From IMG/VR virus record IMGVR_UViG_3300025162_000064, positions 1 to 53,080 of that record: DNA of 53,080 nucleotides, one strand, 5' to 3'. The notes under the pieces were generated by a model that was not told the DNA's origin, ran no database searches, and saw only the letters and a list, made by a program, of their open reading frames with translations. The translations under genes were made by a program, and so were the position numbers. This document shows, piece by piece, positions 3,411 to 37,390 of this stretch (position 1 is its first letter; every line of letters begins with the position of its first letter). The stretch comes from a virus. Lineage: Duplodnaviria > Caudoviricetes.

Positions 3411-4406
3411 CTACCTGAACATGAAAAAGAAGTTGTTGGTGTTGGTGTAGACGAGGACGACGAAGCCGTTGCCACCAATCGAGTTTCCTGAAGCCGCGCC
3501 ACCCGCACCGGCACCGTAGGGTGCCTGCCCCGGCTGAGTCGTGTCGGAGCCGCCGTTGCCGCCACCAGCGCCAACAGACACACTTGTGGATGAGTCAGTG
3601 AAATCGGCTGGGTAGGTCCCAGAGCCGCCGACAGTGTTGGTGGTACGGAACCCGCCGCCGCCGCCGCCGCCGAGGGTAGTCGTGCCGTTTCCTGCCGGCG
3701 TGGATGATGTTGCACCAGCACCACCAAAACCGCTCGAATAACCTGAGTTTCCACCGGCGCCGCCAGCCGTTGACGTGCCGTTGCTTCCGTTGGAACCATT
3801 ATTGCCGCCCCCGGCCGTCGAGGTACCGCCGCCGCCGCCGCCGCCAGAACCGCCAGACCCAGATGCGTAACCAGCACCACCAGCACCCCCCGAGTTAGCA
3901 AAACCACCGGGAGTGATTATGGGGGCGCCGCCGCCACCGCCGCGATTGTTGTTTTGTGAGGTTTGCCCGGCACCGCCTGCAGATCCGGCGAGTGTTGCCG
4001 CACCGCCGCTGTTTGCTACTGTTCCCCCCGCCCCCGCCGTTGCCGCAGATGCCGCGCCTCCGCCAGCCGCCAGAACTCCGCTGGTTCCGGTAGACCCGGT
4101 TCCAGGGCTGGCGTTGGTGCCGATATTGGCCCAGGTGGCACCGCCTGCCGCACCGCTGGAGCCAGCGCCAATCGAGACGTATATCTTGGTCTGTCCCGGC
4201 GTGATCGGAGCGGTGACATACACGTTGCTTGTGAATGCAGCCGCACCCGATCCGCCACCGCCGGCCCCAGTCGAACCACCGACTGTGCCCCCTCCGCCAG
4301 CCCCCAGTGCGATCAACTGGAACGGCTTCGATGCGTTCATGTCCGCTGGCATAGTGTAGCCAGTGGAGGTGTTGCTGGTCGTATAAACGACTGTTTTGGT
4401 TGCCAT
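3411..4406 (-). CDS. Glycine-rich tail fibre/spike protein
   Basis: 331 aa with repeated GGGGG/GGAGG runs and a GNGFVVLVY terminal strand typical of phage Gly-rich domains. Confidence 0.7.
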   Translation of the reverse strand: MATKTVVYTTSNTSTGYTMPADMNASKPFQLIALGAGGGGTVGGSTGAGGGGSGAAAFTSNVYVTAPITPGQTKIYVSIGAGSSGAAGGATWANIGTNASPGTGSTGTSGVLAAGGGAASAATAGAGGTVANSGGAATLAGSAGGAGQTSQNNNRGGGGGAPIITPGGFANSGGAGGAGYASGSGGSGGGGGGGTSTAGGGNNGSNGSNGTSTAGGAGGNSGYSSGFGGAGATSSTPAGNGTTTLGGGGGGGFRTTNTVGGSGTYPADFTDSSTSVSVGAGGGNGGSDTTQPGQAPYGAGAGGAASGNSIGGNGFVVLVYTNTNNFFFMFR

Positions 4407-10462: not shown

Positions 10463-10732
10463 TTAACACTTCACATCCCAGCGTTTCAGCGCGAGATTGA
10501 TCCTGCTATTCGGATCGTGCGCCGTCTTCGCTGAAGTGAGTTTTTCTTTCATGCCGCACATGCGTGTGCGAAAATTATCACGGCGTTGCGCCGATTCTGG
10601 GCTGTGCTTGGCTTCAGAAGCCGTAACCGGGCGCTTGATGTTGTGGCCTTCAGCCTTCAGTGAGGCCCGCCCGCGTTCATTAAGACCGCCAGCCGGGTTC
10701 TTGCCCTCTTTGCGTGTCCAAGCGCCTGACAT
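10463..10732 (-). CDS. Small basic phage protein (DUF6321-like)
   Basis: AWTRKEGKNPAGGLNERGRAS...FRTRMCGMK...DPNSRINLALKRW; GGAG RBS upstream. Confidence 0.7.
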   Translation of the reverse strand: MSGAWTRKEGKNPAGGLNERGRASLKAEGHNIKRPVTASEAKHSPESAQRRDNFRTRMCGMKEKLTSAKTAHDPNSRINLALKRWDVKC

Positions 10733-10752
10733 GGCTTTCTCCAAATGGTTTA

Positions 10753-10771
10753 CGGGGGCACTAGGCCCCCG
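10753..10771 (-). terminator. GC-rich hairpin, possible attenuator/terminator
   Basis: cgggggc-actag-gcccccg directly after the stop of 10783-11280; no clear U-tract. Confidence 0.35.
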
Positions 10772-10782
10772 CATACCTTTTG

Positions 10783-11280
10783 TTAGTCCATCGTTTCCGG
10801 CTCAAGGTGACGGCCCTTAGCGGCCTCACCATGGCGAGCAGAAGTGAACGGGCTAGTATCGGACGAGGCGCGGCCACCGGACTTGCGCGGCTTGCGACCG
10901 GCATGGTGCTTCGCGTGTTCGCCCTCAACGTGGCCGACATGCTTCATGTGATGAAGCTTGCCACCGTGCTTGCGCTTGGCGCGACCACCGTGCTTCTTTT
11001 CGTGCATGGCTTCCGCCTCGCCGAAAATATTGTGGGCGTTGTGGCGGTGCTCCGGCTTGTCCTTGAGGTCTTTCTCGGCTTCGTTGTAGCCGTAGGTAGC
11101 AGCCTCGTGGCCCTTGCCGGTGCCGACGATGTTGTCCTCAACCTTCCCGCCAGCCTTGCGCGCCTTGCGAGCATGATGGACACCATGGTGCGCCAGTTCA
11201 TGCACGCCGTGGTGAGCGGTGTGATGGGCGACGTGGTGAGCGGAATGCTTCACGCCGTGATGCTCTTTATGACCCTTCAT
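10783..11280 (-). CDS. His/Lys-rich basic protein with four K/R-x-x-GG motifs
   Basis: 165 aa, very His-rich; contains RKAGGKV, KKHGGRA, RKHGGKL and RKSGGRA; AGGAGG RBS. Confidence 0.75.
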   Translation of the reverse strand: MKGHKEHHGVKHSAHHVAHHTAHHGVHELAHHGVHHARKARKAGGKVEDNIVGTGKGHEAATYGYNEAEKDLKDKPEHRHNAHNIFGEAEAMHEKKHGGRAKRKHGGKLHHMKHVGHVEGEHAKHHAGRKPRKSGGRASSDTSPFTSARHGEAAKGRHLEPETMD

Positions 11281-11292
11281 GGGTGCCTCCTA

Positions 11293-11823
11293 TTACGACG
11301 CGAGGTTGATGCCCTGAACGTAAAATACGCTCAGGGTGACGACGGCAGACCCAGTCGCGCCGAATGTGACAACGATCTGCACGTCGGTGTTGCCGACGTT
11401 GTCCCAGTTGCCAATCTGCGTGGAACCGGTCCCAGGCACGATGGTGATCTGACCAGCAGTGGCAACGCTTACGGCACCAGCGGTGGTGAAAGCGGTTGCG
11501 CTTGCGCTGGAACCGATACCCATGGTGCCGGCAGATTGGGTTGTGGTCACCATGGCATAGATGTCAGTGATCTGACTCTGCGCCGGGATAACGATGTTGG
11601 TCGTCACAGCCGTGCCGCCAGAACCGGGCTGCTTCACGACAACCGACTGCACCATGCTGGCATAGCCGAGGTTCGCCGCACCGGTCGTTTCGCCGACACC
11701 GGCAAGGGTGCCGGAACCATCGCTCGCCACGACGTTGCCAGCCACAAGGGGGCCAGTAAAGGTCGAAGCCGGCCAGATCGGGCTTCCGTTGGCGTTCGGA
11801 TAAACGCCGCCATTAATATCCAT
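11293..11823 (-). CDS. Head decoration/structural protein
   Basis: STFTGPLVAG and IPAQSQITDI motifs; follows the MCP gene, separated only by an endonuclease insertion. Confidence 0.6.
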   Translation of the reverse strand: MDINGGVYPNANGSPIWPASTFTGPLVAGNVVASDGSGTLAGVGETTGAANLGYASMVQSVVVKQPGSGGTAVTTNIVIPAQSQITDIYAMVTTTQSAGTMGIGSSASATAFTTAGAVSVATAGQITIVPGTGSTQIGNWDNVGNTDVQIVVTFGATGSAVVTLSVFYVQGINLAS

Positions 11824-11859
11824 GGTCAGGCTCCTTTCGGCATACTTGTTCGTTCATCA

Positions 11860-12537
11860 TTAGGCAGCTTCCTTTTGACTGTGCCGGTCCAGGTAATCGG
11901 CGGCGGCACGGAGGACTTTGGAGTTATCTTTGGCTTCACCAAGGATATGATTGCAGGAGTTGCAGAGAAGATTACGAATGGCTCCAGTAGCATGATCGTG
12001 ATCTACAGAAAGATCACGGGTTCGACTGTCGCTATCTTTAGTCTTACGCCCCGGCAACTTGGAAGTTTCTTTCAGGCCGCAAATAGCACAAACGCCACCC
12101 TGTCGGGCATGCATTTCTGCATATTCTGTGTAAGAAATCCCATAAGAACGGGCCAAACCATAATGACGCGCTTGTTCGGTGTTCATTTTGTAGCTGGTTT
12201 TACCATCCTTACCTGTAATCCGTATCGCTTTGTGTTCCGCAATCTTCAGGTTTGGAGCCCGAAGATTGTCTGGATTTTCATCAATGAAGAAAACCGAACG
12301 ATCCGGCCATTCTTTTGTCAGGAACAGCCATGCAACTTGAGCGCCAGACATTTTTCGACCACGATAGGTGATCGAAAGATAATCCTTGCCATTTTGCATG
12401 CGTTGCCGAACGCCAGCCAGACCGCCAGCCAACGCCCTGGAGCTAACTGACACTTTCCAGGTGAACTCACCTGTCAGCGGGTCGTAATCCAGAACTTTTG
12501 CTAAGTCTTCGTAAGTGAAGTCTACAGCCTTCGCCAT
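11860..12537 (-). CDS. Homing endonuclease: degenerate HNH-like N-terminal domain plus endonuclease VII domain
   Basis: N-terminal YDPLTGEFTW...WP...NLR.PNL; C-terminal YGIS..EY..M...QGGVCAIC...LSVDHDH.TG.IR.LLCNSCN..LG. Confidence 0.85.
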   Translation of the reverse strand: MAKAVDFTYEDLAKVLDYDPLTGEFTWKVSVSSRALAGGLAGVRQRMQNGKDYLSITYRGRKMSGAQVAWLFLTKEWPDRSVFFIDENPDNLRAPNLKIAEHKAIRITGKDGKTSYKMNTEQARHYGLARSYGISYTEYAEMHARQGGVCAICGLKETSKLPGRKTKDSDSRTRDLSVDHDHATGAIRNLLCNSCNHILGEAKDNSKVLRAAADYLDRHSQKEAA

Positions 12538-12648
12538 GTCATATCCTTCCATCGCCAAGATTGGCGACGGAGAATGTAGACTGACTGACGAAGGCTGTAA
12601 ATACCCCATTATACTTTAGACTTTCGGCTAACTCATTGAAACCAAAGG

Positions 12649-13579: not shown

Positions 13580-14293
13580 TTAGATGCCGGCCACGCCAGA
13601 CTTCGTCGCCATCGTATTGAAGGCAACAACAATCCGGTTGTAGGCAGAGGTGAAGTCATTGCCGTTGATGCTCTGGAGCGGGTTGGACCCGTCGGGAGTG
13701 TAGTTGGCAAGGGCGATGACGCGGAACGGCAGAGTGGCGCTGGTGCCGCCCGGCGTGGTCAGCGTGTATTGGTCGGCGTAGGCGGTGGACAGGCCGGTGG
13801 ACACGTTGCCCGGCGTGGTGCCGAGGGTGTTCGTGTTCGATCCGGTGCCGGTGCCGTAGGCGAAGCCGATGTTCTGGCCGATGGCAGAAACGCCAACCGC
13901 AGTGGCAGTCGTGTTGCTGTTGGCAGTCTGAACAAGGAACTGAGCGTTCGGGTCCGTGATGACGTAGGCAGTCACCGCAGCGGCAGTGTTCACGTCACCA
14001 ACGCCAGGGAAGTAGTTCGACCAAACGGTGCGCTTGTTCGACACCGACAGGTATTTGCAGCCGGCAAAGATGCCGATCATGCTACCAGCGGCGGCGGCAT
14101 TGGCCGAGGTGGTGCTGTTGGTGCCGACCTGACAGATGTAGCCCGTCGAAAGCTGCGCCACTGGATCACCCGAGAAAATCTGCGGGTTGGTAGAGTTGGT
14201 GGACGAAATCGCAAGCTGCACTTGCTCATAGGTCGGGGACGAACCGGTCCCAGAATACTGCGAAAAACCGAAAGGCGCGTTTGTATTCGCCAT
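13580..14293 (-). CDS. Minor capsid/cement protein
   Basis: MANTNAPFGF...IFSGDPV...GIFAGCKY...AYVITDPNAQFLVQ, directly upstream of the MCP; AAGGAG RBS before the ATG at 14293. Confidence 0.7.
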   Translation of the reverse strand: MANTNAPFGFSQYSGTGSSPTYEQVQLAISSTNSTNPQIFSGDPVAQLSTGYICQVGTNSTTSANAAAAGSMIGIFAGCKYLSVSNKRTVWSNYFPGVGDVNTAAAVTAYVITDPNAQFLVQTANSNTTATAVGVSAIGQNIGFAYGTGTGSNTNTLGTTPGNVSTGLSTAYADQYTLTTPGGTSATLPFRVIALANYTPDGSNPLQSINGNDFTSAYNRIVVAFNTMATKSGVAGI

Positions 14294-14438
14294 GACGGGT
14301 TCTCCTTCATAAAAGGAGGCTCCATCATCGCACACCGGGGCGATGGGAAACCGGGTGATAACTAATACCAAACACCCCGAGGTATTTGGGAGGGATAAAC
14401 CCTGCTGCTCGTCAACATACACAAGTCAAAAAGCAAAT

Positions 14439-14462
14439 AAAAGGGCTTTTTACGGCCCTTTT
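14439..14462 (-). terminator. Rho-independent terminator
   Basis: aaaagggc-tttttacg-gccctttt hairpin with a U-rich tail on the minus strand, after 14476-15099. Confidence 0.55.
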
Positions 14463-14475
14463 ACTTCGTGTGCTC

Positions 14476-15099
14476 TTACTCGTCGGCAGGAATGGCAATA
14501 GGCGAGTAGCTTTTGTTGATTTTCGATCGAACCTGGGCATGATCGCGCCCGAATTGACCGTCAGGTGCGGAGTTGAGTTGCTCCTCCTTCTTCCGAACCT
14601 GATTGCGCGCCTCCTTGTTTTCGATCTGGCGCACTTCGTCAGTGATTTCCTTCGGTCGTTCCATCAGGACCATGCCCTTGCGAGACACAACGCCCTTGGA
14701 ACCGATGGGCATCATTTCAGGGTGTCTGCTTGCATCGACGGCTTCCCACCCCTTGCGAGCCAAGGCGACTTGATACGCGGGGTCTTCCTGGCCGAGGATG
14801 GTGTTGCGCTTCCATTCATACGTCCAGCCGTCAGGGACGAGGTGCGGCGGGATAAAGAACTCGTCAGTTCCTTCATCCATGTCGCCAATGTTGCCGCGCA
14901 GTTCGGCGGCGCGACGTGCGGCGCGTGCGCGGGGGTCTTCGTCACGCATAGCCTGTCGCATGGCAGCACGTTGCGGCGCGTCGGGAACCTTGATGTCGGT
15001 CACAACCGGTGCGTCGGCAGTCTCAGGTGTTTCAAGCGCCTGTTGTAGGACGCTTTTGGGCGCGGATTTCATCGCACGCCGTGTAATTGAACCACTCAT
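14476..15099 (-). CDS. Conserved head-module protein
   Basis: PDGWTYEWKR...GWEAV...GMVLMERP motif, commonly found between scaffold and capsid genes. Confidence 0.6.
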   Translation of the reverse strand: MSGSITRRAMKSAPKSVLQQALETPETADAPVVTDIKVPDAPQRAAMRQAMRDEDPRARAARRAAELRGNIGDMDEGTDEFFIPPHLVPDGWTYEWKRNTILGQEDPAYQVALARKGWEAVDASRHPEMMPIGSKGVVSRKGMVLMERPKEITDEVRQIENKEARNQVRKKEEQLNSAPDGQFGRDHAQVRSKINKSYSPIAIPADE

Positions 15100-15110
15100 G
15101 TTCTATCCTT

Positions 15111-15992
15111 TCAGTGGATTTTGCCTTCACGCTTCAGCTTCAGCTTTTCTTTCCCGTATTCTTCGGGCGTCATCTTCATCATGCTCGCCATTTCGCGTTC
15201 TTCGGCGCTCAGGCGGACGACCGTTTGCCGGTCGCTGGATGATTGACGACTGACGGGTGCCGCTGCCGGCGCTGCGTTGGGCGAAACACGCTGTTGCGTG
15301 ACTTTTGCGGTCTGTTCCATGGGTGTTTCAGCCTGGGTGGCTGCCGCGCCACGGTTGATCTTCAGGGCGCTTTCGACCTCGGCAAAGTATGCGTCAGTGT
15401 CCGGCTGGATGCCGTCTGCAACAGCAAGGTTGTGTGCGTTGATCATCTTGTTGAACAGGCGCTGATCACGCGCGAACTCAGGATGACGCCGGATCCACTC
15501 GGCAGAGCGAGGGGTAAGCTGCGATGCTAGCGCCTCGACCGGGTCTGCGGGTTGCTGTCGCGGCGGTTCCTGCCTGGGCGCAGCTTCCATCGCCGCCTTG
15601 CCGTTCTCCAGTTGCAGGCGCTTGGCTTCGTTGGAGGCCATTTCCTGCTGGATTTCGGCTGCACGCCCATAGTCACCTGCCTGCATCGCTTCAGCGTAGT
15701 GCGACTTCAGAATGCCGGTGTTCGTGTTGACCGTATAGATGGCGTTGTTGATCAACTGAAGGTCAGTGTCGGCCTTTTCGTTGCGCGCTGCATATTCACG
15801 GCTCTGGGCCTCGTGAATGCGGCGCTCGGCGTTGATACGAGCCTGCTTTTCAGCTTCAAGTTGCTGTTTTAGCTGCTCAATACTGGCATTGAAGTCGGTT
15901 TCAGGCTCGTTTGTGTCTGCAACCTGAATTTCAACGCCTTCTTTCGGCGTTTCTTCAACAACGACGCCATCAATATTATTTTCGTCTGCCAT
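15111..15992 (-). CDS. Capsid scaffolding protein
   Basis: Acidic N-terminus, long coiled coil, C-terminal VRLSAEEREMASMMKMTPEEY capsid-binding-type motif. Confidence 0.75.
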   Translation of the reverse strand: MADENNIDGVVVEETPKEGVEIQVADTNEPETDFNASIEQLKQQLEAEKQARINAERRIHEAQSREYAARNEKADTDLQLINNAIYTVNTNTGILKSHYAEAMQAGDYGRAAEIQQEMASNEAKRLQLENGKAAMEAAPRQEPPRQQPADPVEALASQLTPRSAEWIRRHPEFARDQRLFNKMINAHNLAVADGIQPDTDAYFAEVESALKINRGAAATQAETPMEQTAKVTQQRVSPNAAPAAAPVSRQSSSDRQTVVRLSAEEREMASMMKMTPEEYGKEKLKLKREGKIH

Positions 15993-16007
15993 GTTGATGC
16001 CCCCTTA

Positions 16008-16412
16008 TTACCAAACTTGGTCAGGCGCTTGAATGCGACCACGGATATTCGTGTCATCAAGCATGCGACAGACGACGTTGTTGATTGTCACGCTCCACCC
16101 GTCGGAGGGGCGGAAGAACACCCAGTCGTCAAGGCTGATGTCGATGCCTTCAAACCAGTTGTTTGACGGGTCAACGAAGGCTTGCGGGCCTTTCTTCAGC
16201 ACCAGACCGACCTTGCCCTGGATTTTGTCTTCGTCGCGGGTGCCGCTGGTCAGATAGATGCCGCTCTTGGTCTTTTCAGGCCGCATATAGACAGCAACAA
16301 GCACCTGATTGTTGAAAACTTCGACGTTATTGACGTTACCGACCTCCTTTTTCAAGGCTTGCTTAGGGTCGGTTGAATGCTCCATCACCATGAAGGGCAT
16401 ATTGTTCTCCAT
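16008..16412 (-). CDS. groES: GroES-like co-chaperonin
   Basis: VLV....PEKTKSGIYL...GLVLKKGP.A...DWVFF...CRMLDD..I pattern of Cpn10. Confidence 0.8.
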   Translation of the reverse strand: MENNMPFMVMEHSTDPKQALKKEVGNVNNVEVFNNQVLVAVYMRPEKTKSGIYLTSGTRDEDKIQGKVGLVLKKGPQAFVDPSNNWFEGIDISLDDWVFFRPSDGWSVTINNVVCRMLDDTNIRGRIQAPDQVW

Positions 16413-16424
16413 TACTTGCGTTGG

Positions 16425-16613
16425 TTAAGTATTGGACAGCAGCTTGTTTGCTTCATCGCATAAATCAAGGGCTGTTCTTAGGCCGGTAATAATTCCGACC
16501 TCTTTTTGGTAATCTAATGCGTGGCCGAAGGACAAATCGTCTTTGCGTCTTTCGATAGTTTCAATCAGTAATTTACGCAATTCCTTCTCAAAAAGCATGT
16601 TGTATGTGAGCAT
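16425..16613 (-). CDS. Hypothetical protein
   Basis: 62 aa helical protein (DYQKEVGIITGL), the type commonly found upstream of phage groES. Confidence 0.6.
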   Translation of the reverse strand: MLTYNMLFEKELRKLLIETIERRKDDLSFGHALDYQKEVGIITGLRTALDLCDEANKLLSNT

Positions 16614-16632
16614 TTACTTGGTCCTGGAATAC

Positions 16633-16667
16633 AAAACGGGCAGTAACACATCTATGTTACCGCCCGC
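16633..16667 (-). terminator. Rho-independent terminator
   Basis: Minus strand reads cgggcggtaaca-tagatg-tgttactgcccg followed by ttttgtatt. Confidence 0.6.
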
Positions 16668-16696
16668 CAAGTATTAATGCAAATCAGGCCGAAGAA

Positions 16697-17986
16697 TTAC
16701 TTCCGGTGACCGTATTCCTTGATCTTTTCAAGGCGTCCTTTGCCGCCACCTGCGCCGAACTCCATCTTGGCTTCAGCAACGCGACCACCGGTCTTGCGCC
16801 CCATCATCGGAGGCATGCCGCCAGGAGGCGGTGCGCCGGCACCCGGAGGAGGCATCATCGGCGGCATACCGCCAGGAGGCATACCCATAGGAGCGCCAGC
16901 GCCTGGAGGAGGCGGAACAGCAACCGGCATAGCGGGAGGACGCGGAGGCATGGTCGGCGGCTGACCGCCACCCATCTGGTTATCCATGCCCTTGCCGGTG
17001 CCGATAATGATGTTGATGTTGGTCTTGCCCTTGGTGCGACCACCATCCTTGCGAGCCATGCGCCCACCGGTCGGACGAGTGCCCTCCAGAGCGCCGTCAG
17101 ACACGCTCAGGCTGCCACCACGCTTCTTGGCGACACCACCATGGCATTCATGGCAACGGCACCCAGGACCATGCTCGGCCTTGCCACCGCGTTTGCGAGG
17201 CTGACCGGTCCACAGGGCATTCGGGTCATTCGGATCGGGGCGCGTGTCCAGATCAGGATAGGTTTCACGCCGACGCTGTTTGCCGCCACCGGCCTTAATG
17301 ATGGCAGCAAGGGCGGCTAGATCCGGTTTCTGCGATGCAGGTGCCAGATACGGTTTATCGCCCGCACCCGTCCCCATAGCTTCGCCGCCATCATACTTGT
17401 GCGCCCGACCACCGGTAGCCTTGCCGGTCAGGGCATTCCCCTTCACCATCTTCTTCACCAGGGCGCGGTCTTCGCGTTCGTCGGGGTGTTCGGCTTTCCC
17501 GCCACGCTTCATCGGGCCAACGCCCGGACGCATCGGCATACCCTGACCGCCGGCCATTTTTGCTTTCATCAACGCGAGGACGCGCGGGTCCATGCTGCCG
17601 GCGTTGGGCGCACCCATCATCGGCCCGCCGACCATTTTATGCGCCCGTCCGCCCTTGTTGAACCCGCCGACATGCTTGCTGCCATCACGCTCGGCGTTGG
17701 CTTCTTTGGCGTTGCGGTTGATCAGGCTGTCAGCAGACAGGGCCTTACCACCTGACTTGCGCGGCTTGCGACCAGCGTGGCGTTTGGCGTGTTCGCCATG
17801 AACAGCGCCGACAACCTTACCGCCCTTCTTGAACTGCCGGCGCGAGATCGGTCGCATGCCGGTCTTTACGTCAGCGTCAAGGGCGTCTGGCGGCGTGTAG
17901 CCGGATGCATCAACTTTCGCCCCCTGCGGGTCGGTTCGGGTGATCCGGTGTGCTTTAGCGCGTGCGCGATCAGTTGCTTGCGACAT
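16697..17986 (-). CDS. Basic, low-complexity protein with about 12 K/R-x-x-GG motifs and a Pro/Met-rich C-terminal region
   Basis: 429 aa; FKKGGKV, RKSGGKA, FNKGGRA, MKRGGKA, KATGGRA, KYDGGEA, RKRGGKA, KKRGGSL, RKDGGRT, RKTGGRV; AGGAG RBS. Confidence 0.75.
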   Translation of the reverse strand: MSQATDRARAKAHRITRTDPQGAKVDASGYTPPDALDADVKTGMRPISRRQFKKGGKVVGAVHGEHAKRHAGRKPRKSGGKALSADSLINRNAKEANAERDGSKHVGGFNKGGRAHKMVGGPMMGAPNAGSMDPRVLALMKAKMAGGQGMPMRPGVGPMKRGGKAEHPDEREDRALVKKMVKGNALTGKATGGRAHKYDGGEAMGTGAGDKPYLAPASQKPDLAALAAIIKAGGGKQRRRETYPDLDTRPDPNDPNALWTGQPRKRGGKAEHGPGCRCHECHGGVAKKRGGSLSVSDGALEGTRPTGGRMARKDGGRTKGKTNINIIIGTGKGMDNQMGGGQPPTMPPRPPAMPVAVPPPPGAGAPMGMPPGGMPPMMPPPGAGAPPPGGMPPMMGRKTGGRVAEAKMEFGAGGGKGRLEKIKEYGHRK

Positions 17987-18051
17987 GTCTTCGTTCTCCT
18001 ACCGGCGTCCCGGCGTTTGTTTAACACAAATACCATATAGCTTTGGCGATA

Positions 18052-19992
18052 TCATCTTTTTATTGCTTTGCGTGCAATGGATAGTGCGTGGGTTATGGCA
18101 TTCCCGCCACTAGAAAAGCTTTCAACGTTTTTGCCGCGCACCTCAGGTATCGTAAATGGTTTTTTCTCCACAAGAGGCATACCGAATTTAACCCGCGATT
18201 TGTTGGTTTCGGCAATTCTATCGTCGTAATTTACTATAGGTTGCGGGTCATACCCCCATTCATGATGACTGTCGCCGGAAGTATATAAATCTTTTGCTTT
18301 TACTGTTTTTTTTAATATTTTATAATTTCCATTTAAAGCCGAATCGCCGTGATCTTTTGCATACTGAGGATGAAGGGTAACCCAATCGCCTGGATTAATG
18401 TCTGTTATAGTTTTATCTTTGGGAACTGCTCTATATACAGTATGCCTTGAATGAGGCTTTCCTTTTGCTTCAGACAATATATTAAATGCTTGCCTGTCAT
18501 AACTATTTCCTTGTTCTCCGTAATAACGGAATCCATTGGGGCCATAAACATCGGGTGGATAAACGCCGGTTACATCATGCAATGGCGAACCGTCATCTTT
18601 GCTGGGAGCTTTGTGTTCGCCTTGATATTCACCAACATCCCCGCCGCCATTAGCGTGCGTCACGCTATCGCCGAACCACTGGCTAAAATTGGGATTGCTG
18701 GTGACGTCGCCACCGTCGGCCTTGTGGATGGCTTTCTGCTTAGGATCGAACGCACCGCTATTGCCAATGGCAGATTTGATCTGCGTTGGATGCCGCAGCA
18801 TGACGGCAAGATTGCCCTTCAGCGACGAAGGCATCCAAGAGTCATGCCCGGCTGCGCGCAACTGGTCAAACCAGTCTGACTGCGCCTTTTTGTAGTTTTG
18901 CGCCCGGCTTAGAGCCTCTGGCCGCTCTCCAGTGTATGGATTTTCTGCCTTCAAATACGCCGGAATAACCCGGCTTGCGGTGTTTGTCGGCTGGAATCTG
19001 CCGTTCTCCCACACATGCCCTTGGCTGTCATTGCTCTCGGCGTATTGACTGGCTTCATGAGGATCGGTCGTAAACCATGCACCATGCCGACCTACGTTAA
19101 ATGACGTGAAGTCCTTATCTTTCGACGTGCCTGTATAGTATGTGCGCGGGACGCCATTATCGTGCGTCACGCTATTGCCGAACCACTGGCTAAAATTGGG
19201 ATTGCTGGTGACGTCGCCACCGTCGGCAAACCCAGGCCGGCGCGGCAAGTCAGCAACGCCATGTGCGTCATTGATCGCCTTCACCTCGTCATCGCCTAGG
19301 ACGCGATTGACTTTCATGCCACCGCTGATGAGCCAATTACCGGACATATTCGGATTGGTTTTGTAGCGGTAGAAGCCACCATGCGGGACTTGGTCCGTAA
19401 TGTGGGCGGTGTTGGGGATAGGTTCGCCTTTGGCGTTCATGCGTGCGCGGCTATTAGCCAATGACTGCCAATCGACGTCTGCCGGATGCTCAACTTCAGC
19501 CCACACATGGTTTGACGGTCGCGTGTCTGGCGCTTTCAGGTCCGCATGCGACTTGGCACCAATGTGCGTGGCTACAGGAAGGTCGCCAGAGTGCCAGCCA
19601 GGACGGTATGCCAGATCGCCAAGGGTAGACTTTACACGCCCTTGTGACTTGCCTTGCGGCCCTTCTTCGGCAGTCAGCCACTGACCAACAGGAACCGGCT
19701 TATTAGCGTTCACAAACAGCGGATACAGCTTGCCGTTTTTCGTCTTGAACAGCTTGTATGCCTTCACCGTCTTCTGCGGTTCCGGCATGTCGCCAACGTC
19801 GCCACCGTCGGCATATCCATCGGGGATCGCGGTATGCTCATCACCCATACCGGTGACATGCACACCAGGGATCATGGAAGCCGGATGTGGCGGCTTTGGG
19901 TGGTCGCCGGTAGGTAGTGGCCCAATCTCCTTAGCAAGCCCCTTGGCGACCATTGTAGCGCGTCGGATGGCTTTGTCTGGGGATTGCATCAT
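18052..19992 (-). CDS. Polyvalent multi-domain protein with ADP-ribosyltransferase-like domains separated by ADGGDV motifs
   Basis: Domain 2 (NFSQWFGNS...FNVGRHGAWFT...VIPAYLKAENP...QIKSAIGNSGAFDP) resembles the ART of polyvalent proteins. Domain 3 has VYRAVP...INPGDWVT...HEWGY (R-S/T-E ART-like). The gene is coupled to the portal gene. Confidence 0.7.
   Translation of the reverse strand: MMQSPDKAIRRATMVAKGLAKEIGPLPTGDHPKPPHPASMIPGVHVTGMGDEHTAIPDGYADGGDVGDMPEPQKTVKAYKLFKTKNGKLYPLFVNANKPVPVGQWLTAEEGPQGKSQGRVKSTLGDLAYRPGWHSGDLPVATHIGAKSHADLKAPDTRPSNHVWAEVEHPADVDWQSLANSRARMNAKGEPIPNTAHITDQVPHGGFYRYKTNPNMSGNWLISGGMKVNRVLGDDEVKAINDAHGVADLPRRPGFADGGDVTSNPNFSQWFGNSVTHDNGVPRTYYTGTSKDKDFTSFNVGRHGAWFTTDPHEASQYAESNDSQGHVWENGRFQPTNTASRVIPAYLKAENPYTGERPEALSRAQNYKKAQSDWFDQLRAAGHDSWMPSSLKGNLAVMLRHPTQIKSAIGNSGAFDPKQKAIHKADGGDVTSNPNFSQWFGDSVTHANGGGDVGEYQGEHKAPSKDDGSPLHDVTGVYPPDVYGPNGFRYYGEQGNSYDRQAFNILSEAKGKPHSRHTVYRAVPKDKTITDINPGDWVTLHPQYAKDHGDSALNGNYKILKKTVKAKDLYTSGDSHHEWGYDPQPIVNYDDRIAETNKSRVKFGMPLVEKKPFTIPEVRGKNVESFSSGGNAITHALSIARKAIKR
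18646..19227. repeat. 75-bp direct repeat (18646-18720 and 19153-19227, 2 mismatches); its 17-bp core recurs at 19796-19812
   Basis: gccatta[g/t]cgtgcgtcacgctat[c/t]gccgaaccactggctaaaattgggattgctggtgacgtcgccaccgtcggc. Confidence 0.95.
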
Positions 19993-22271
19993 TGCTGTTC
20001 AGCTTGCTTTGCGATGGGGGCGGCAATCGGTGCCGCCTGGGGATGCAAGGCGATGTCGCGCGCCAGTTCGAGTAGCTGGATTTTTTCGTGGCTGGCACGG
20101 TCGGCGGCGCGGTTGCGGTCTTCCTGCATGACGTCATCTTGTTGAATGCCGAGGGCGTGACGCTTCGTCTGCGCGTCCATCAACTTCGCCCTTGCCGTCA
20201 TCAGATCGACAGGCGTGTCCACCTGCTGTTGCTGAACATCATGCGGCGCGCTCGCTTGGTGTTGCGCCTTCAGCATGTCCGCCTGGGCCTTCAGCGTCTG
20301 TGCGTCGGCCTGCTGCTTCTTGACCTGCATTTCCGCCATCTGCTTCTGCATTTCCGGCGGTGGCGCAGCCTGGGCAGACGGAGGAGCCATGAACTGGTCT
20401 GGGTTGGAGAAGCCGAGGGCCTGGATGCACGCACGATCAATAGCAATCGGGTCATACATCGTCGGGTTAGAAGCCTGTAGCTGCTTCAGCGCGGCAAGCT
20501 TCATCATACGCTGCGCTGCACTGGCTGTGTTCGGGTCTGCCTGGGGCGACAGTTCGTTGTCCTCTAGCGCCTTCAGGAACACCTTCTCGTCCCACGTATA
20601 TGCGGGTGTCTTGTTACGCTGCCAGAAGCTGTTCGGGTTTTCCTTGAAGCAACGTGCAAGCAACCGAAATTCCTCGGCCTGCGATGCGTGCATGCGCTTG
20701 TGGACACTGTTCAGCACCTTCGCGGCCTGTTCGATCATCGCCAGGGTGGTGCCGACAGGCGCGTCTGCGCGTCCTTCACCGACCTGCTGCTCAGACGTGC
20801 CGCCGATCCGCATACCCGTCGTGGCGATGTCATTAACCAGCGCCATCAAGGCTTGCGATGGTTCTTTATACGGGAGAGGCATGATGGCCTGATTAATGGG
20901 CATGCCACCGGTTTTGACCGGAGCGCCACCACCCGGCGGAACGCGGAAAATGTTAGTGTTTTGACGCGCGCCAGTATCCGCGAACAGAAAGCCAGGGAAA
21001 TTAGAATACATCCCAGCATCAAGCAACTCACGCCAAGCAGCAGTAATAGCGTTGGTAGTATTACCAAGTATATGCAGTAATCCAATGTCGTAGAAGCCGA
21101 AGCCAGGAACGAATGTATACTTGACGAAATTAGCACGCGGGTCAGGAAGTTCTTCGTCGTTCTTGTCGTAGTTTCGAACAATAGACAGGATTTGCTTCGA
21201 AGATACGTCAATAGTGACGCGATACGGGACTTCCAAGCCACTGATTTTGCCCTTGTATTTGTGTTCGTAGCCGACGATATCGAGTTCGCAATAAATCTCG
21301 TAAATTTCGCGGTCGCGGTCGTCAGGGTTCTTGGTTTCGGAACTGATGCCCTGCTGTGCGTCCTTCTCCTCCTTGACGGCATCAAGCTTAGGCGCGGCAG
21401 CCTGCGACAATTCGGTGTCGCGGTAGACGCCCATGATTTGCAGTCGCTTGACCGTCGATGGCTTCATCGAAACGCGGTGCGTGATGCGCCGGGCGTTCTG
21501 GAGGTCGGATGCGTTGTTGCTGACGATCAGATCGTCGGCGTCAACAGTCTCGCTCACAGGCCGGTTGCGCAATGGACAAAAATAGACCTTCTTGAACGCT
21601 GTGCCGCCGAAGCCAAGCAACAGCAGCATGCGGTCGGTGTCGGGATAGTATTCCGTCGCCGTGCTGGTGAGGTAGTGGTTAAAGTCCTTTTCCAGCGCGT
21701 CGGCCAACTGGTCCTGTTCGGCGGTGCTGCCGTTGCTGTCGTCCCTGATCTTGACCGGTCCATCGGTGGGCAGCATTTCCGAACGCGCGTTCGCCTGGAA
21801 GCGGAGGACAGCCTCCAGAAGCAGCGGGTGACGGACACGGGACATACCCTCGACAGGAGCGCCGTCAGACGCGCCGGCAAGGTTGGGTATCTCCACCTTC
21901 AGACCGAGAAGCTTAATGCCCTGTGCGCGGTCCTCAATCCATTCCTGTCGGGTTTCAAGGTCGTCCTCTACGCCGCGTAGCAGTTCGCTGCTGATGCGGC
22001 TTAGTTCGAGGTCGCTGATGTCCTCGGCCAGATTGTCGAACCAGCCCTTCGGACCACGGCTTTCGGCCTCGTCAATGGGCTTTCCGTCTAAGCTGACGGT
22101 GATCGAACCATCAGGGTGTTCAATGCGTAGGATCGCACCCTTGTCGTCATATTCCGGCGTATCCTGCTGCTCGTCGTCGTCTGCCACCACCACGTCCATC
22201 GGTGCAGGCTGCAAACCCGGTTCGGGTTCAGACAGCCGGATGTTCGGTGATAGGCCAGGAACGAGCGACAT
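19989..22271 (-). CDS. Portal protein
   Basis: 760 aa downstream of terL; HPLLLEAVLRFQA, GTAFKKVY, FVPGFGFYDIGL and APVGTTLA motifs of P22-like portals. Confidence 0.85.
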   Translation of the reverse strand: MSLVPGLSPNIRLSEPEPGLQPAPMDVVVADDDEQQDTPEYDDKGAILRIEHPDGSITVSLDGKPIDEAESRGPKGWFDNLAEDISDLELSRISSELLRGVEDDLETRQEWIEDRAQGIKLLGLKVEIPNLAGASDGAPVEGMSRVRHPLLLEAVLRFQANARSEMLPTDGPVKIRDDSNGSTAEQDQLADALEKDFNHYLTSTATEYYPDTDRMLLLLGFGGTAFKKVYFCPLRNRPVSETVDADDLIVSNNASDLQNARRITHRVSMKPSTVKRLQIMGVYRDTELSQAAAPKLDAVKEEKDAQQGISSETKNPDDRDREIYEIYCELDIVGYEHKYKGKISGLEVPYRVTIDVSSKQILSIVRNYDKNDEELPDPRANFVKYTFVPGFGFYDIGLLHILGNTTNAITAAWRELLDAGMYSNFPGFLFADTGARQNTNIFRVPPGGGAPVKTGGMPINQAIMPLPYKEPSQALMALVNDIATTGMRIGGTSEQQVGEGRADAPVGTTLAMIEQAAKVLNSVHKRMHASQAEEFRLLARCFKENPNSFWQRNKTPAYTWDEKVFLKALEDNELSPQADPNTASAAQRMMKLAALKQLQASNPTMYDPIAIDRACIQALGFSNPDQFMAPPSAQAAPPPEMQKQMAEMQVKKQQADAQTLKAQADMLKAQHQASAPHDVQQQQVDTPVDLMTARAKLMDAQTKRHALGIQQDDVMQEDRNRAADRASHEKIQLLELARDIALHPQAAPIAAPIAKQAEQQ

Positions 22272-22274
22272 ATG

Positions 22275-22454
22275 CTACCTCATGAGTGCGCCGTGTTCGG
22301 CAATAAAGCGTTCGATGGCTTCTTGCGCGGCATAATTATCAGCGATTGCTTTTACTGTATACGTCGCAGTAATTCCAGCCAAATCAGGCGACCATACTTC
22401 CACGGTGAAAGAACCGTCGCCATTGTCTTCAAGTGCCGCTTGGCATTTTAGCAT
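22275..22454 (-). CDS. Small hypothetical protein (59 aa, not in ORF track)
   Basis: Manual translation MLKCQAALEDNGDGSFTVEVWSPD...AAQEAIERFIAEHGALMR; fills the terL-portal gap. Confidence 0.55.
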   Translation of the reverse strand: MLKCQAALEDNGDGSFTVEVWSPDLAGITATYTVKAIADNYAAQEAIERFIAEHGALMR

Positions 22455-22456
22455 GA

Positions 22457-24130
22457 TTACACCGGATATAGAGGTTGTGGCGGTTTGCCTTGATGCCGGT
22501 TTGCTGCGTTCAACTCCGCAATACGCTCGGGGCTGCGGACAAGCAAGCCGAGGTCGCGCAGGTGACGGAGCGCCATGCTGACGGTATCGACAATGTCGTC
22601 ATGTCGCCCTTTGGGGAACTGACCGACCTGGGTGATGACCATATCTGCCCAGGCAAGATCAGGCGCGTATACCATGCCTTCGGAGAACAAAGCCTGCACG
22701 CTGTAGAGGCGCGCTAGCTTGTCCTGCGCCTTCGGATCGACCAACTGAACGGCGAAGTCTTCGTGGCCATACATGCGGCGCATCTCCTGCGACACACTGA
22801 TGCCAGACGCCTTGTTTTCGATCAGCAGCTTGTCAACCTTCAGCGTCCGGCAGGTCTTTGCTACCTTTTCCACGAGGTCATGTAATTCCAGACGTTCCTG
22901 CCAAGCCGTCATCAGCATGACCTTAGGCAGACCGTCGATGGTGCCGGTGCCTGACAATGCCTCGGCGTTTGCGCCATACCGATTGACCGTGCGGGTGGCG
23001 CGGGTGTCGGTTGATCCATACCATACGCCCCAGACCGTCAGGGCGCTGAAGTCATTCTCTTGCTTCGTGGTGTATGCGGTGTCCAGGCTGGCGATGATGA
23101 AATCGAACGGCGGGAAAGCTTCGTCAGGCCAGAGGTTCCACCACTCTCGCTTGATCACGCCGCCACCAGCCGGTTCAGGGCGCTGCTGTAGCTGGCCGGC
23201 TGTAGCCCATGGCCCTAGGGTCTTCTCAAGCAGCCTGACCTGCTCCTCGTCGAACCGCTCTGGCCACAACAGTTCCCCTGGCGTCTCGCGCGGGTCTTTC
23301 CATTGGATCGGAATGCCATCATCGGTCGCCCAGGCGGGCACCAGGGTGGTGTGGAATGACCGGTCTGGTTCGTATCGCATCGGTAGGCAGAGGTGCTGCC
23401 AGTCGCCAACACCGCGCTCTAGGACGTGTCCGCTGATGTCCTGCTCCGACAGGCGCTGCGCGATGACGATGCGGCAACCGAAACCGGGCTTCGAATTGTT
23501 CAGACGATTATACCACGCCATGTCCCACCACTCGATGGTAGACTTGATAATGGCTTCGCTGTTCGCCTCGGCGCTGTTGTTGAGGTCGTCGCCAATCAGG
23601 TAGGAGCCGCCAAGTCCGGTCGTGGCACCACCGACAGACACTGTGTTGCGTATGCCGTTCTTGTCGTTCTGAAATCTCTGCTTGGTGTTGGTATCGCCGG
23701 TCAGCTTAAACCGGCCTCCCCAACGCCGCTGATACCAGTCGGATTGGATGAGCGTGCGGCACTTAACGCTATCTTGCAGCGATAGCGCCATGGCGTAACC
23801 GGCGTGGAGGAATTGCACACCGGGACCAGACAGCGACGTGTTTGCTTGCTGCGCCCAAACCCAGGCAGGGAACATAACGCCGCAAACCGTCGATTTGCTA
23901 AATCGCGGCGGAATATTAATAAGCAGGTTGTTAATATATCCGTCCGCGCAAGCTTCTAAGTGTTCGCAAACAGCTTGTAGCGCGTAACCGCCAGTAGCAA
24001 ACTCTGCGCTGTCAATATGAGGCCAAGCGGCAACAGTAAAGTCATACAGCGATGCTTCCAGTTCGCACCGCTCTATTTCAAGTAACGCCTCATCTATATC
24101 AACGTTACTGTCGCCATACTTGATTATCAT
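22457..24130 (-). CDS. terL: Terminase large subunit
   Basis: LLINIPPRFSKS (Walker A variant), LIGDD (Walker B), SLDTA, IENKASG and FPKGRHDDIVD nuclease motifs. Confidence 0.95.
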   Translation of the reverse strand: MIIKYGDSNVDIDEALLEIERCELEASLYDFTVAAWPHIDSAEFATGGYALQAVCEHLEACADGYINNLLINIPPRFSKSTVCGVMFPAWVWAQQANTSLSGPGVQFLHAGYAMALSLQDSVKCRTLIQSDWYQRRWGGRFKLTGDTNTKQRFQNDKNGIRNTVSVGGATTGLGGSYLIGDDLNNSAEANSEAIIKSTIEWWDMAWYNRLNNSKPGFGCRIVIAQRLSEQDISGHVLERGVGDWQHLCLPMRYEPDRSFHTTLVPAWATDDGIPIQWKDPRETPGELLWPERFDEEQVRLLEKTLGPWATAGQLQQRPEPAGGGVIKREWWNLWPDEAFPPFDFIIASLDTAYTTKQENDFSALTVWGVWYGSTDTRATRTVNRYGANAEALSGTGTIDGLPKVMLMTAWQERLELHDLVEKVAKTCRTLKVDKLLIENKASGISVSQEMRRMYGHEDFAVQLVDPKAQDKLARLYSVQALFSEGMVYAPDLAWADMVITQVGQFPKGRHDDIVDTVSMALRHLRDLGLLVRSPERIAELNAANRHQGKPPQPLYPV

Positions 24131-24597
24131 TATGTTTTTCTGGCTTTTCGCGCAGCACGAGATTGCCGAACGATATCATTCCACATTTCTTCTTTTTTAT
24201 CGAAGGAGATACCTTCTTGGCGCAAATAGTTTCGAAGGGCCTTTGTGCATATTTGCCCAATCCGCGAGTCTGTCAATTTATGCATTTTCGCTAATTCGGT
24301 CTGGGTGTATCCCTGTTTATATTGCTCCAAAATAGCATGATAGCGCGCTATGCTTTTCTTCCGGTTCTCCGCCTCTAATGAAGCGCGCGAGGGCTTAACT
24401 GTCACGCCTTGACGAAGCTGAACACCGTGCTTGCCAAGCACTTCTATTAATTCAGCCCGTGTTATTCTACCCAATCCATACACATTAAGTAATTCAGCAG
24501 CAGAATACTTTTCCAGTTCTTCTGTTGTCTTGATTCCCATCCAAGTAATTAAGCAATTACGCGCCCTAGTAGACAGTTCTAGTTCGTCGATGTCCAT
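24130..24597 (-). CDS. RNA polymerase alpha-CTD-like domain fused to a sigma-4-like HTH
   Basis: IDELELSTRARNCL...IKT.EEL......ELLNVYGLGR....E, then GYTQTELAKMHKLTDSRIGQICTKALR. Confidence 0.75.
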   Translation of the reverse strand: MDIDELELSTRARNCLITWMGIKTTEELEKYSAAELLNVYGLGRITRAELIEVLGKHGVQLRQGVTVKPSRASLEAENRKKSIARYHAILEQYKQGYTQTELAKMHKLTDSRIGQICTKALRNYLRQEGISFDKKEEMWNDIVRQSRAARKARKT

Positions 24598-33167: not shown

Positions 33168-33352
33168 AATCGCTTTTGCTGGTCATCACGGCCCTATTCC
33201 TGGCCGGCTGCGCCGCGCCTGCGGTGAAGGTGACGGATACGTCCTGCCTATGGGTGCGCCCGATTTACATCGAAAAAAAAGACGTATTGACAACCGAAAC
33301 TGCATCTGAAATCTTAGCGCATAACGACAAGTGGAAGGAGAACTGCAAATGA
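33164..33352 (+). CDS. Outer-membrane spanin lipoprotein (Rz1-like)
   Basis: Lipobox LAGC, then DTSCLWVRPIY...D.LT..TA..ILAHN..W...C. Confidence 0.8.
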   Translation: MKSLLLVITALFLAGCAAPAVKVTDTSCLWVRPIYIEKKDVLTTETASEILAHNDKWKENCK

Positions 33353-33717
33353 CCTGGGTTTATCACCAAAACAATGGCGGCATTTATCGTGATGGCGCAT
33401 TGGTCGGCCTTGGCTATTCCGGCATCAATGACGGATTGGACAATCCCGCCGAGCAGAATGTGGCTGACGTTGGGCCTATCCCTGTCGGCACGTATGACAT
33501 CGGCGAGGCGTTCACGCACCCGCAATGCGGTCCCATGTCGATGCGCCTGACGCCGCAGGATGGCACGAACACGTTCGGTCGTGACGGCTTCCTGATCCAT
33601 GGTGACAATCAGGACATGAACCATACCGCCAGCCACGGATGCATCATTCTGCCGAAGATCATCCGCGCAGCGATCTCCGCTTCAGGTGACACCGTTCTGA
33701 CGGTGGTGGAGGGCTGA
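33349..33717 (+). CDS. Tlde1/DUF2778-family L,D-transpeptidase-fold peptidoglycan enzyme (probable endolysin)
   Basis: GYSG...NP......GPIP.G.Y.I...GRDGFLIHGD......ASHGCII with the intact His...Cys catalytic motif. Confidence 0.85.
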   Translation: MTWVYHQNNGGIYRDGALVGLGYSGINDGLDNPAEQNVADVGPIPVGTYDIGEAFTHPQCGPMSMRLTPQDGTNTFGRDGFLIHGDNQDMNHTASHGCIILPKIIRAAISASGDTVLTVVEG

Positions 33718-37117: not shown

Positions 37118-37390
37118 ATGAGCAATACCACCGATTGGCGCGACATTTTGATTGAAGACACTTCGATCAAACCTGCGATGATCCGCGCCTTGTGTTCCCA
37201 TTTCGACACTGAAGTCGTCACCCTCGGCGCTGTTGCCGATCTGAAGATGTCGGAATTGAAGGCCATGAAGGGCGTCGGCAAGATCGCCATTCAGTCGTGC
37301 ATGGATGCAATCGGTCGCGCCGTTCGCGGTGAGCCTCTGATTGGTGCTGGGCCGACCGTTTTTGACATCGTGACCAAGTCAGCAGCGTGA
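37118..37390 (+). CDS. RNA polymerase alpha-CTD-like (HhH) protein
   Basis: IEDTSI....IRAL.......TLGAVA.....EL..MKGVGKIAIQ; AGGAG RBS. Confidence 0.6.
   Translation: MSNTTDWRDILIEDTSIKPAMIRALCSHFDTEVVTLGAVADLKMSELKAMKGVGKIAIQSCMDAIGRAVRGEPLIGAGPTVFDIVTKSAA

Follow-up and report, generated by a model that had tools for sequence, protein, structure and literature searches.

Gly-Gly tags at the module borders of a candidate polyvalent cargo protein encoded beside the portal gene of a tailed phage

The window analyzed here is a stretch of 53,080 nucleotides (nt) from a tailed phage (Duplodnaviria; Caudoviricetes; IMG/VR record IMGVR_UViG_3300025162_000064, positions 1 to 53,080), in which nearly all genes lie on the minus strand. 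Its open reading frame (ORF) 18052-19992 encodes a protein of 646 amino acids (aa). The ATG of this gene overlaps the stop codon of the gene for a 760-aa portal protein (Pfam SU10_portal, E 1.3e-18), and with the terminase gene upstream it stands in a portal-terminase (late/packaging) context. The gene probably encodes a virion cargo carrier of the kind known as polyvalent proteins, with a conserved chassis and exchangeable passenger modules that would be swapped at short peptide tags built around Gly-Gly (GG).

The order of parts in the 646-aa protein is leader, YADGGDV (tag 1), module D1, FADGGDV (tag 2), an ADP-ribosyltransferase (ART) module, KADGGDV (tag 3), a short stub, ANGGGDV (tag 4), module D3, FSSGGNA (tag 5) and a helical tail (Table 1). 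A sequence-only reading of the window had described the tags, a 17-mer and a direct repeat in the DNA, the ART module and an AT-rich third domain, all of which were confirmed.

Exchange of modules among related phages

A portal-anchored search yielded 314 related viral contigs, the best 80 of which were compared. An ORF of at least 100 aa directly follows the portal gene in 76 of these 80 loci. In L008, L041, L072 and L075 the contig ends right after the portal gene and no ortholog is readable; a 132-aa ORF of L080, which appears truncated or frameshifted, was left out. Complete orthologs range from 225 to 1648 aa, and the version of L050 has 85 aa. Common to them are an N-terminal helix and, at the C-terminus, a tail of GG followed by an Ala-Leu (A-L) helix; the modules in between differ, and the reading frames are open across all ortholog junctions. 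Every module order was found among database homologues (ART before D1, D3 before D1, D1 directly before D3). Pfam domains detected in 41 complete orthologs were ART-PolyVal (16), M15 (2), VanY (2), GNAT (2), LPD23 (1), Zeta toxin (1) and PcfJ (1). The expectation from the sequence-only reading, that orthologs would share termini and tags and carry different modules, was thus seen among the portal-anchored loci, with a variable module order in addition.

Loci with portal DNA ~95-96% identical to that of the window carry a gene of 537, 770, 892 or 1095 aa. In 10 such loci the homology is interrupted at 19796, 19230 and 18704 (tags 1 to 3), and a further break lies just after the start codon, where relatives have one more module, with KARGGMID at its end. 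Homology to L002-L005, L001 and L023 stops at tag 1 (19796), and homology to L003-L005 and L009 stops at tag 3 (18704). D1 is absent from L003-L005, in which the leader is joined directly to the ART module via a 20-nt stretch that aligns to both tags. A contig of the independent sequencing run X10, in which 18048-18639 is uncovered, also breaks at 18704 and continues into a different module. Among nine close genes compared by blastn, 41 of the 83 internal ends of high-scoring segment pairs (HSPs) were found within 12 nt of a tag GG, against 5% of random positions; at the protein level, with 70 distinct orthologs, 27.8% of 1412 internal HSP ends were within three residues of a GG, against 7.7%, although the ends counted are not independent events.

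The most reduced form of the gene was found in L050 (L050:5096-5353). This is an empty allele, encoding an 85-aa protein that consists of N-terminal helix, GG and tail. In comparison with L040, which codes for a 473-aa ortholog (L040:9307-10728), the flanks are 99.6% and 98.1% identical. L040 has ~1.25 kb of cargo where L050 has ~85 nt; on the left, identity breaks off at the GG codons, and on the right, where the tail helix starts. The database phage closest to the window (MW202675.1, 11301-18798; L081; portal 66% identical) has its cargo distributed over three adjoining genes (739, 847 and 898 aa), all with an N-terminal helix of their own, and the first stops two residues after a tag. A megablast search of window positions 14000-24000 against phage records gave no match. 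The comparison of the portal-anchored loci supports cassette exchange at the tags, as far as can be read from sequence. Coincidence of breakpoints with the GG motifs, also anticipated in the earlier reading, was observed at tags 1 to 3, in the HSP ends, in the L050/L040 pair and in a switch of base composition at tag 4.

Modules of the protein and the DNA at its tags

Table 1 Features of the cargo gene and its surroundings (window positions)
Feature	Positions	Strand	Basis or remark
Whole gene, modular (polyvalent) cargo protein (candidate), 646 aa	18052..19992	-	start overlaps portal stop
N-terminal chassis, aa 1-59: amphipathic helix PDKAIRRATMVAKG and HPASMIPGVHV motif	19816..19992	-	ortholog comparison
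Tag 1 YADGGDV, aa 60-66; 17-mer at 19796-19812 inside	19795..19815	-	
Module D1, aa 67-254; PHROG 30118	19231..19794	-	profile match and model
Tag 2 FADGGDV, aa 255-261; 17-mer at 19211-19227 inside	19210..19230	-	
Module 2, aa 262-423: ART-PolyVal (PF18760)	18724..19209	-	Pfam
Tag 3 KADGGDV, aa 424-430; 17-mer at 18704-18720 inside	18703..18723	-	
Stub TSNPNFSQWFGDSVTH, aa 431-446: copy of the first 16 residues of the ART-PolyVal module	18655..18702	-	
Tag 4 ANGGGDV, aa 447-453: hybrid junction tag directly after the stub	18634..18654	-	
Module D3, aa 454-625; PHROG 2579	18118..18633	-	profile match and model
C-terminal chassis: tag 5 FSSGGNA (aa 626-632) into amphipathic helix ITHALSIARKAIKR (aa 633-646)	18055..18117	-	
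Direct repeat copy 1, 76 nt	18645..18720	+	
Direct repeat copy 2, 76 nt, 2 mismatches	19152..19227	+	
SU10-type portal gene; anchor for gathering orthologous loci	19989..22271	-	Pfam, PHROGs
429-aa basic Gly/Pro-rich protein, next gene	16697..17986	-	

The ART module matches Pfam ART-PolyVal over aa 278-415 (E 3.4e-15; 57.5 bits, cut-off 31.2; model positions 2-140 of 140). The only profile match of D1 is a PHROG of unannotated function, and D3 matches a PHROG labelled 'ParB C-terminal domain'. Structure models of D1 (44-sequence alignment) and D3 (35-sequence alignment) reached a predicted local distance difference test score (pLDDT) of 83.9 and 88.9, respectively. Foldseek searches of the PDB with both models returned nothing at E <= 0.001. 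Exhaustive structure alignment (VIA-align) gave weak best matches, with Z 5.0, root mean square deviation 4.0 and 123 aligned residues for D1, and Z 5.3, 2.8 and 73 for D3. By title, ~40 of the 50 rows listed for D1 and most of those listed for D3 belong to the ART superfamily, among them RES toxins, Arr, PARPs, diphtheria-type toxins, DarT and Tpt1. A language-model lead for D1, with a score of just 0.80, also points to ART. D1 and D3 are probably ART-fold modules, judging from these models, with the reservation that the assignment rests on Z values of at most 5.3, below the usual noise level of the aligner. Of the three effector-like domains originally proposed, one is hence assigned by Pfam, and the other two have ART-superfamily matches at low Z and none in Foldseek.

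A sequence search of the PDB with the whole 646-aa protein gave no match. The sole hit of the D3 profile among PDB sequences, a 31-residue stretch of lysozyme (E 0.002), was judged to be due to chance. D3 is very widespread: it has 3393 representative clusters, and the proteins that contain it measure 146 to 4392 aa. Both D1 and D3 were also found stand-alone or in other combinations.

At the DNA level, the 17-mer ACGTCGCCACCGTCGGC occurs exactly at 18704, 19211 and 19796. No further match with up to two mismatches is present in the window, and 0 of 100 shuffles gave any. The residues A-D-G-G-D are written with the same five codons in all three tags, for which the chance is ~1e-4 given the codon usage of the window. 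Tags with the same residues in distant lineages have different codons (e.g. 1/6 and 3/6 shared), and since the codons differ, it is the peptide and not the DNA that is conserved across the clade. No DNA-level signal common to all tags was found, GG codon pairs differing among lineages. The identical tag codons are, on this comparison, a recent and lineage-specific state and apparently not the reason why the tag exists. The suggestion that the tag-coding DNA serves as a recombination site is therefore retained in part: homology does break at the tags, but the motif is a peptide motif first and its DNA identity is confined to the lineage.

The direct repeat (18645-18720 and 19152-19227) is 97% identical between its copies, with a spacing of 507 nt. 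It codes for the tag plus TSNPNFSQWFG(N/D)SVTH, the N-terminal start of the ART-PolyVal module. The stub looks like a scar of the junction with D3, whose left partner would have been the beginning of another ART copy. The insertion or duplication scar proposed earlier fits the duplicated ART start, with the correction that its left junction lies inside that start and not at a tag. GC content and GC content at third codon positions (GC3) are 0.41-0.44 and 0.31-0.33 in D3 and the tail, and 0.56-0.60 and 0.58-0.64 in the upstream modules; the fall in GC3 (~0.63 to 0.31) is located at tag 4. The low GC suggests that D3 was recently acquired, and that D3 and the tail came from a lower-GC relative and were joined at tag 4.

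The arrangement was also checked in sequencing runs. Nine runs of three studies contain 0.97 of the sampled words of the window. In three runs the Logan contigs break only at the exact 51-nt core of the 76-nt repeat. In these runs the depth of the 516-nt ART piece equals that of its flanks (20 versus 19.5; 93.9 versus 95.4/90.8; 30.1 versus 29.7/25), and the shared 51-mer has ~2x depth. This depth pattern therefore fits the order of the window, with the ART module once per genome. The repeat, which the sequence-only reading had considered as a possible misassembly, is not an obvious one by run coverage and depth, as far as contigs tell. The 507-bp deletion between the repeat copies that had been predicted was not seen: no such joint occurs in the contigs of four runs, from which rare variants are dropped.

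The tag as a peptide motif and its possible roles

A strict tag pattern, [K/F/Y]-[A/K/S]-x-G-G-x-[V/I], occurs 199 times in 70 orthologs (49,865 aa), compared to 13.8 +/- 3.6 in shuffled sequences (maximum 26 in 200 shuffles). In 436 distinct contexts there are residue preferences for K/F/Y at position -3, A/K/S at -2 and V/I at +3. The tags are disordered in the D1 model (pLDDT < 50), and at least 90% of 44 D1 proteins retain the GG that follows D1, despite differing neighbours. In one phage of Pseudomonas and one of Caulobacter, both unrelated, ART-PolyVal has no tag beside it, and among 130 representatives of D3 from elsewhere the upstream tag is strict in 8, with any GG in 22. Because it is rare or absent beside these domains elsewhere, the tag seems to belong to the phage clade and not to the passenger domains.

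The last tag of the orthologs runs into a helix with the pattern GG-x-[VI]-x-[KRH]-A-L-x-L-x-R, and the A-L helix is present in 26 of 26 aligned tails. Since the last tag continues into the tail helix, the internal tags resemble the first half of a terminal signal. Other orthologs are closed by a second type of ending, HPA..IPGVH..PIF.GG, which in the window is found in the leader. The N-terminal amphipathic helix of the window also opens the orthologs. A complex prediction with the portal protein and the 60-aa C-terminal tail, made without control runs, scored 0.00 and is uninformative either way.

Tags were also found in five other proteins of the window. The 429-aa product of the next gene and a 165-aa protein (10783-11280, minus strand) are paralogues, very basic and rich in Gly, His, Lys and Pro, which have 'GEHAK.HAGRKPRKSGG' in common and carry many K/R-x-GG-K/R tags. 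The 429-aa protein, whose gene adjoins the cargo gene in relatives, has at least eight of these, the most tags outside the cargo gene. A 2027-aa protein (44580-50663, minus strand) with an SLT transglycosylase domain at aa 1376-1483, likely an ejection protein, has a low-complexity region at aa ~735-1210 with tandem tags every 8-10 residues. A 643-aa protein (42641-44572, minus strand) has RATGGRV near its C-terminus, followed by a helix ending in IVKALHVANQAI. In a 402-aa protein (51178-52386, minus strand) an A-L-x-x-A-R helix and then RGTGGNV lie near the N-terminus, with further tags. By sequence, the 643-aa and 402-aa proteins look like members of the same signal-bearing set. The 402-aa protein was also considered as an ART relative, which was dropped (BLASTP E 0.43 against the ART module, no Pfam match). 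A GNAT gene (50667-51164) lies between the genes for the 402-aa and 2027-aa proteins.

In the reading that we prefer, the chassis of the cargo protein consists of the N-terminal amphipathic helix and of the C-terminal GG tag with its helix of the A-L-x-x-A-R type. From the position of the gene and its translational coupling to the portal gene, we infer that the chassis brings the protein into the capsid. Between the chassis ends zero to many autonomous effector modules could be carried as passengers, three in the present case, which would be packaged, presumably injected with the DNA, and would act as enzymes that modify host targets. Each module would end in a disordered tag, the internal tags being copies of the terminal signal that are kept as junction handles for docking or trimming. 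Because every module carries a tag, recombination between tag-coding stretches (17-20 identical nt here), within the gene or between co-infecting relatives, could add, delete and reorder modules in frame. The role favoured for the tag is that of a docking or handling signal for virion incorporation, presumably bound by some partner, because the chassis is retained even where cargo is missing, tags can stand in tandem and tag flavour follows lineage.

Several points weigh against this reading. The tag breakpoints may partly reflect selection for in-frame domain borders and not homology-driven exchange, and the HSP ends counted depend on one another. The metagenome contigs may include some chimeras, and the runs carrying the arrangement of the window may be its own source samples. 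The left junction of the stub falls inside the ART start and not at a tag. Beyond a PD-(D/E)XK nuclease (37387-38136, plus strand; E 2e-6) that may belong to a phage recombination module, neither a recombinase nor an annealing protein was identified. The low Z values of D1 and D3 were mentioned above.

As the main alternative, the gene product could be a true polyprotein that a protease of the phage or the host cuts at its GG tags. The carrier would be cut into free effectors after assembly, and its basic neighbour into small DNA-binding peptides. Gly-Gly-X cleavage of core polyproteins is known in some large eukaryotic DNA viruses, and ubiquitin-like precursors are trimmed as well. A tag at each module border and before the C-terminal helix, its disorder and accessibility, and its presence in several likely internal proteins are in agreement with cleavage. 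So are natural C-termini 2-5 residues past a tag, as in the first cargo gene of MW202675 (...HARGGVAK) and similarly in L020, L043 and L021. However, Pfam scans of 37 ORFs and PHROG scans of 17 detected no processing-type protease family; these scans left out four small minus-strand ORFs at 10463-12609 and would not reveal a host or novel protease. The 646-aa protein itself has no MPTase or other peptidase domain in Pfam, and a SprT-like protein of the relative MW202675 has no counterpart in the window (tblastn best E 3.2). Furthermore, tandem tags 8-10 residues apart, as in the 2027-aa protein and many orthologs, suit multivalent binding better than cleavage. We consider a true polyprotein unlikely. 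The word had been used in the sequence-only reading, but for the cleavage that it implies no protease was found in the scanned ORFs.

It is quite improbable that the tags have no protein role, persisting merely as homology for cassette movement, like integron cassette ends, or as neutral hinges of fused genes. The identical codons in the lineage of the window, the breakpoints at the tags and the lack, after internal tags, of the helix that follows the terminal tag are as expected from such a passive role. Yet distant lineages write the same residues with other codons, which indicates selection on the peptide. The preferences at -3, -2 and +3 hold across all the contexts compared, and the tag is abundant in proteins without cassette structure.

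The tags might also mimic the mobile loop of GroES and recruit host GroEL to fold or hold the cargo, which is highly improbable. The loop 'KTKGGLI' of the GroES homologue of the Pelagibacter phage HTVC027P (L082:14089-14556) fits the strict tag pattern, some tags consist of GG followed by two hydrophobic residues, and a phage GroES-like gene (16008-16412, minus strand; Pfam, PHROGs) lies in the same block of head genes. However, GG is mostly followed by a charged or small residue (D, E, R, K, G, A) and there is no conservation of the third hydrophobic position, the tags of the window being GGDV and those of the basic proteins GG[KR]. Moreover, tag flavour follows phage lineage, though GroEL is nearly invariant. 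The loop of the window's own GroES-like protein has a single G. Finally, that the cassette shuffling is an artefact of assemblers joining strains at short shared tags or at the 51-nt exact repeat is hardly credible: the relatives are all metagenome contigs and the shared 51-mer does break Logan contigs, but the same architectures recur in separate samples (L003/L004/L005; L055/L056/L057/L060; L078/L079), the 17-20 nt of tag identity are shorter than the usual word sizes of final contigs, the ART piece has the depth of its flanks in three runs, frames are open across all junctions, and GC3 and protein divergence shift together at tag 4.

Comparison with known systems and other genes of the phage

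Polyvalent proteins of phages and conjugative elements hold multiple effector domains in one polypeptide and are encoded near portal or terminase genes, and their packaging and injection were predicted (Iyer, Burroughs, Anand, de Souza, Aravind 2017, PMC5512222). ART domains of the Tox-ART-HYD2 type (Pfam ART-PolyVal) occur in them in one or many copies, and recombinational variability was raised for one kinase locus (PMC5512222). The 646-aa protein resembles them in having at least two effector-type domains in one polypeptide (ART-PolyVal and two autonomous modules), in the late/packaging context of its gene with the overlapped portal stop, and in the ART, LPD, GNAT and peptidase domains of its orthologs. 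It differs in the GG tag that ends each module, as the accessible text of PMC5512222 contains neither 'linker' nor 'glycine' and no inter-domain tag. It further differs from polyvalent proteins as described there in its small chassis, which is conserved even without cargo, in the exchange among near-identical phages and in lacking an MPTase or other peptidase domain.

Position immediately downstream of the portal gene is shared with the MuF polymorphic toxins and SPP1 gp7-like proteins, which combine a conserved head-associated part with variable toxins, including ARTs, for which delivery with the DNA was proposed (Jamet et al. 2017, PMC5576092). Unlike those, the 646-aa protein has no Pfam MuF domain (Phage_Mu_F and relatives) at E <= 0.1, in a search that did not extend to profile-profile comparison of the short chassis, and it carries several modules in series between two conserved ends where MuF proteins have one C-terminal toxin. 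The accessible text of PMC5576092 does not mention recombination, motifs or linkers, and neither this text nor that of PMC5512222 describes a cargo-less chassis or exchange among near-identical phages. Literature searches gave no account of a GG tag between the modules of phage cargo proteins, and PMC12014285 offered nothing on the subject; the alignments of Iyer et al. could bear on it. In the light of these comparisons the product of the gene is probably a polyvalent cargo protein of the virion, whose junction motif is new and well defined.

A conserved motif at the border of exchangeable cassettes is also present in polymorphic toxins. In CdiA-CT and Rhs toxins a short pre-toxin peptide marks the border of recombinational swaps, and in Rhs it is a processing site as well. 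These are secreted bacterial toxins with immunity genes and orphan cassettes, in which the C-terminal tip alone varies, whereas the protein discussed here would be a phage virion protein and has multiple tags. No immunity gene was recognised, in an analysis that was not aimed at immunity genes or silent cassettes; downstream lies the gene for the conserved basic protein. T4 internal proteins have a short N-terminal and single capsid-targeting peptide that is removed by the prohead protease. The tags differ from it in being multiple and not N-terminal, the T4 cleavage site is different, and no prohead protease was recognised in the window. Adenoviruses process core proteins at Gly-Gly-X sites, and Gly-Gly-X processing of core polyproteins was described for African swine fever virus (PMC10308890). 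The resemblance is an analogy only, of repeated GG sites in virion-internal polyproteins and basic core proteins: the lineages are unrelated, the residues before GG are in another register, and no clan-CE-like protease was found here.

A more far-reaching possibility, which we put forward tentatively and regard as somewhat unlikely, is that the tag, along with the terminal helices, is a portable code by which the clade loads cargo into the capsid and releases it. Whatever domain stands between tags would be brought into the capsid by a clade-specific receptor, separated or trimmed at GG and delivered into the host, and all internal proteins would be organised by one code, from the carrier of effectors to the basic proteins associated with DNA and the giant SLT ejection protein. 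This would amount to natural plug-and-play protein delivery and possibly to a phage version of polyprotein processing at Gly-Gly. Virion effectors of the polyvalent and MuF types are known as such, and the present case bears on how domain sets are rapidly rebuilt and how cargo is marked. What it adds is a junction motif simple enough to search for, a minimal chassis of which an empty allele occurs in nature, and evidence at the population level that freshwater phages almost identical to each other differ chiefly in which ADP-ribosyltransferase-like and other modules they carry. If the tag or the tail is a loading signal, it offers a route to test cargo packaging, for instance by loading foreign proteins into capsids, and an annotation rule for a hypervariable and otherwise unannotated gene in widespread aquatic podophage-like viruses related to the HTVC023P type.

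Other genes of the window were observed in passing. T4 Alt is a head-carried, injected ADP-ribosyltransferase of the R-S-E clade which is not modular and which modifies the alpha subunit of RNA polymerase (PMC5512222). Because of this activity of Alt, a 155-aa protein encoded beside the small terminase gene (24130-24597, minus strand) is notable in an ART-carrying phage: it has an RNA polymerase alpha C-terminal domain (Pfam E 4e-11) and a weak match to sigma-70 region 4. A 128-aa protein (33331-33717, plus strand) has matches to Tlde1 and L,D-transpeptidase (YkuD), with E 3e-13 and 3e-6. A 331-aa protein (3411-4406, minus strand) is extremely rich in glycine and has 24 GG runs without the flanking preferences of the tag. 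In the region 10463-12609 the plus-strand ORF 10780-12450 is probably spurious, and the minus strand has four ORFs (103, 165, 176 and 249 aa), the last of which is HNH-like by eye. A conserved helical protein of 62-66 aa is encoded between the basic-protein and GroES-like genes (16425-16613, minus strand; L050:7180-7380). Its H-A-L and R-T-A-L-D-L stretches recall the tail helices, and it is a possible partner. The C-terminus of the portal protein (19989-20400, minus strand) forms a Q/A-rich helical extension of ~120 aa, with R-H-A-L and E-L-A-R-D-I-A-L stretches similar to the cargo tails.

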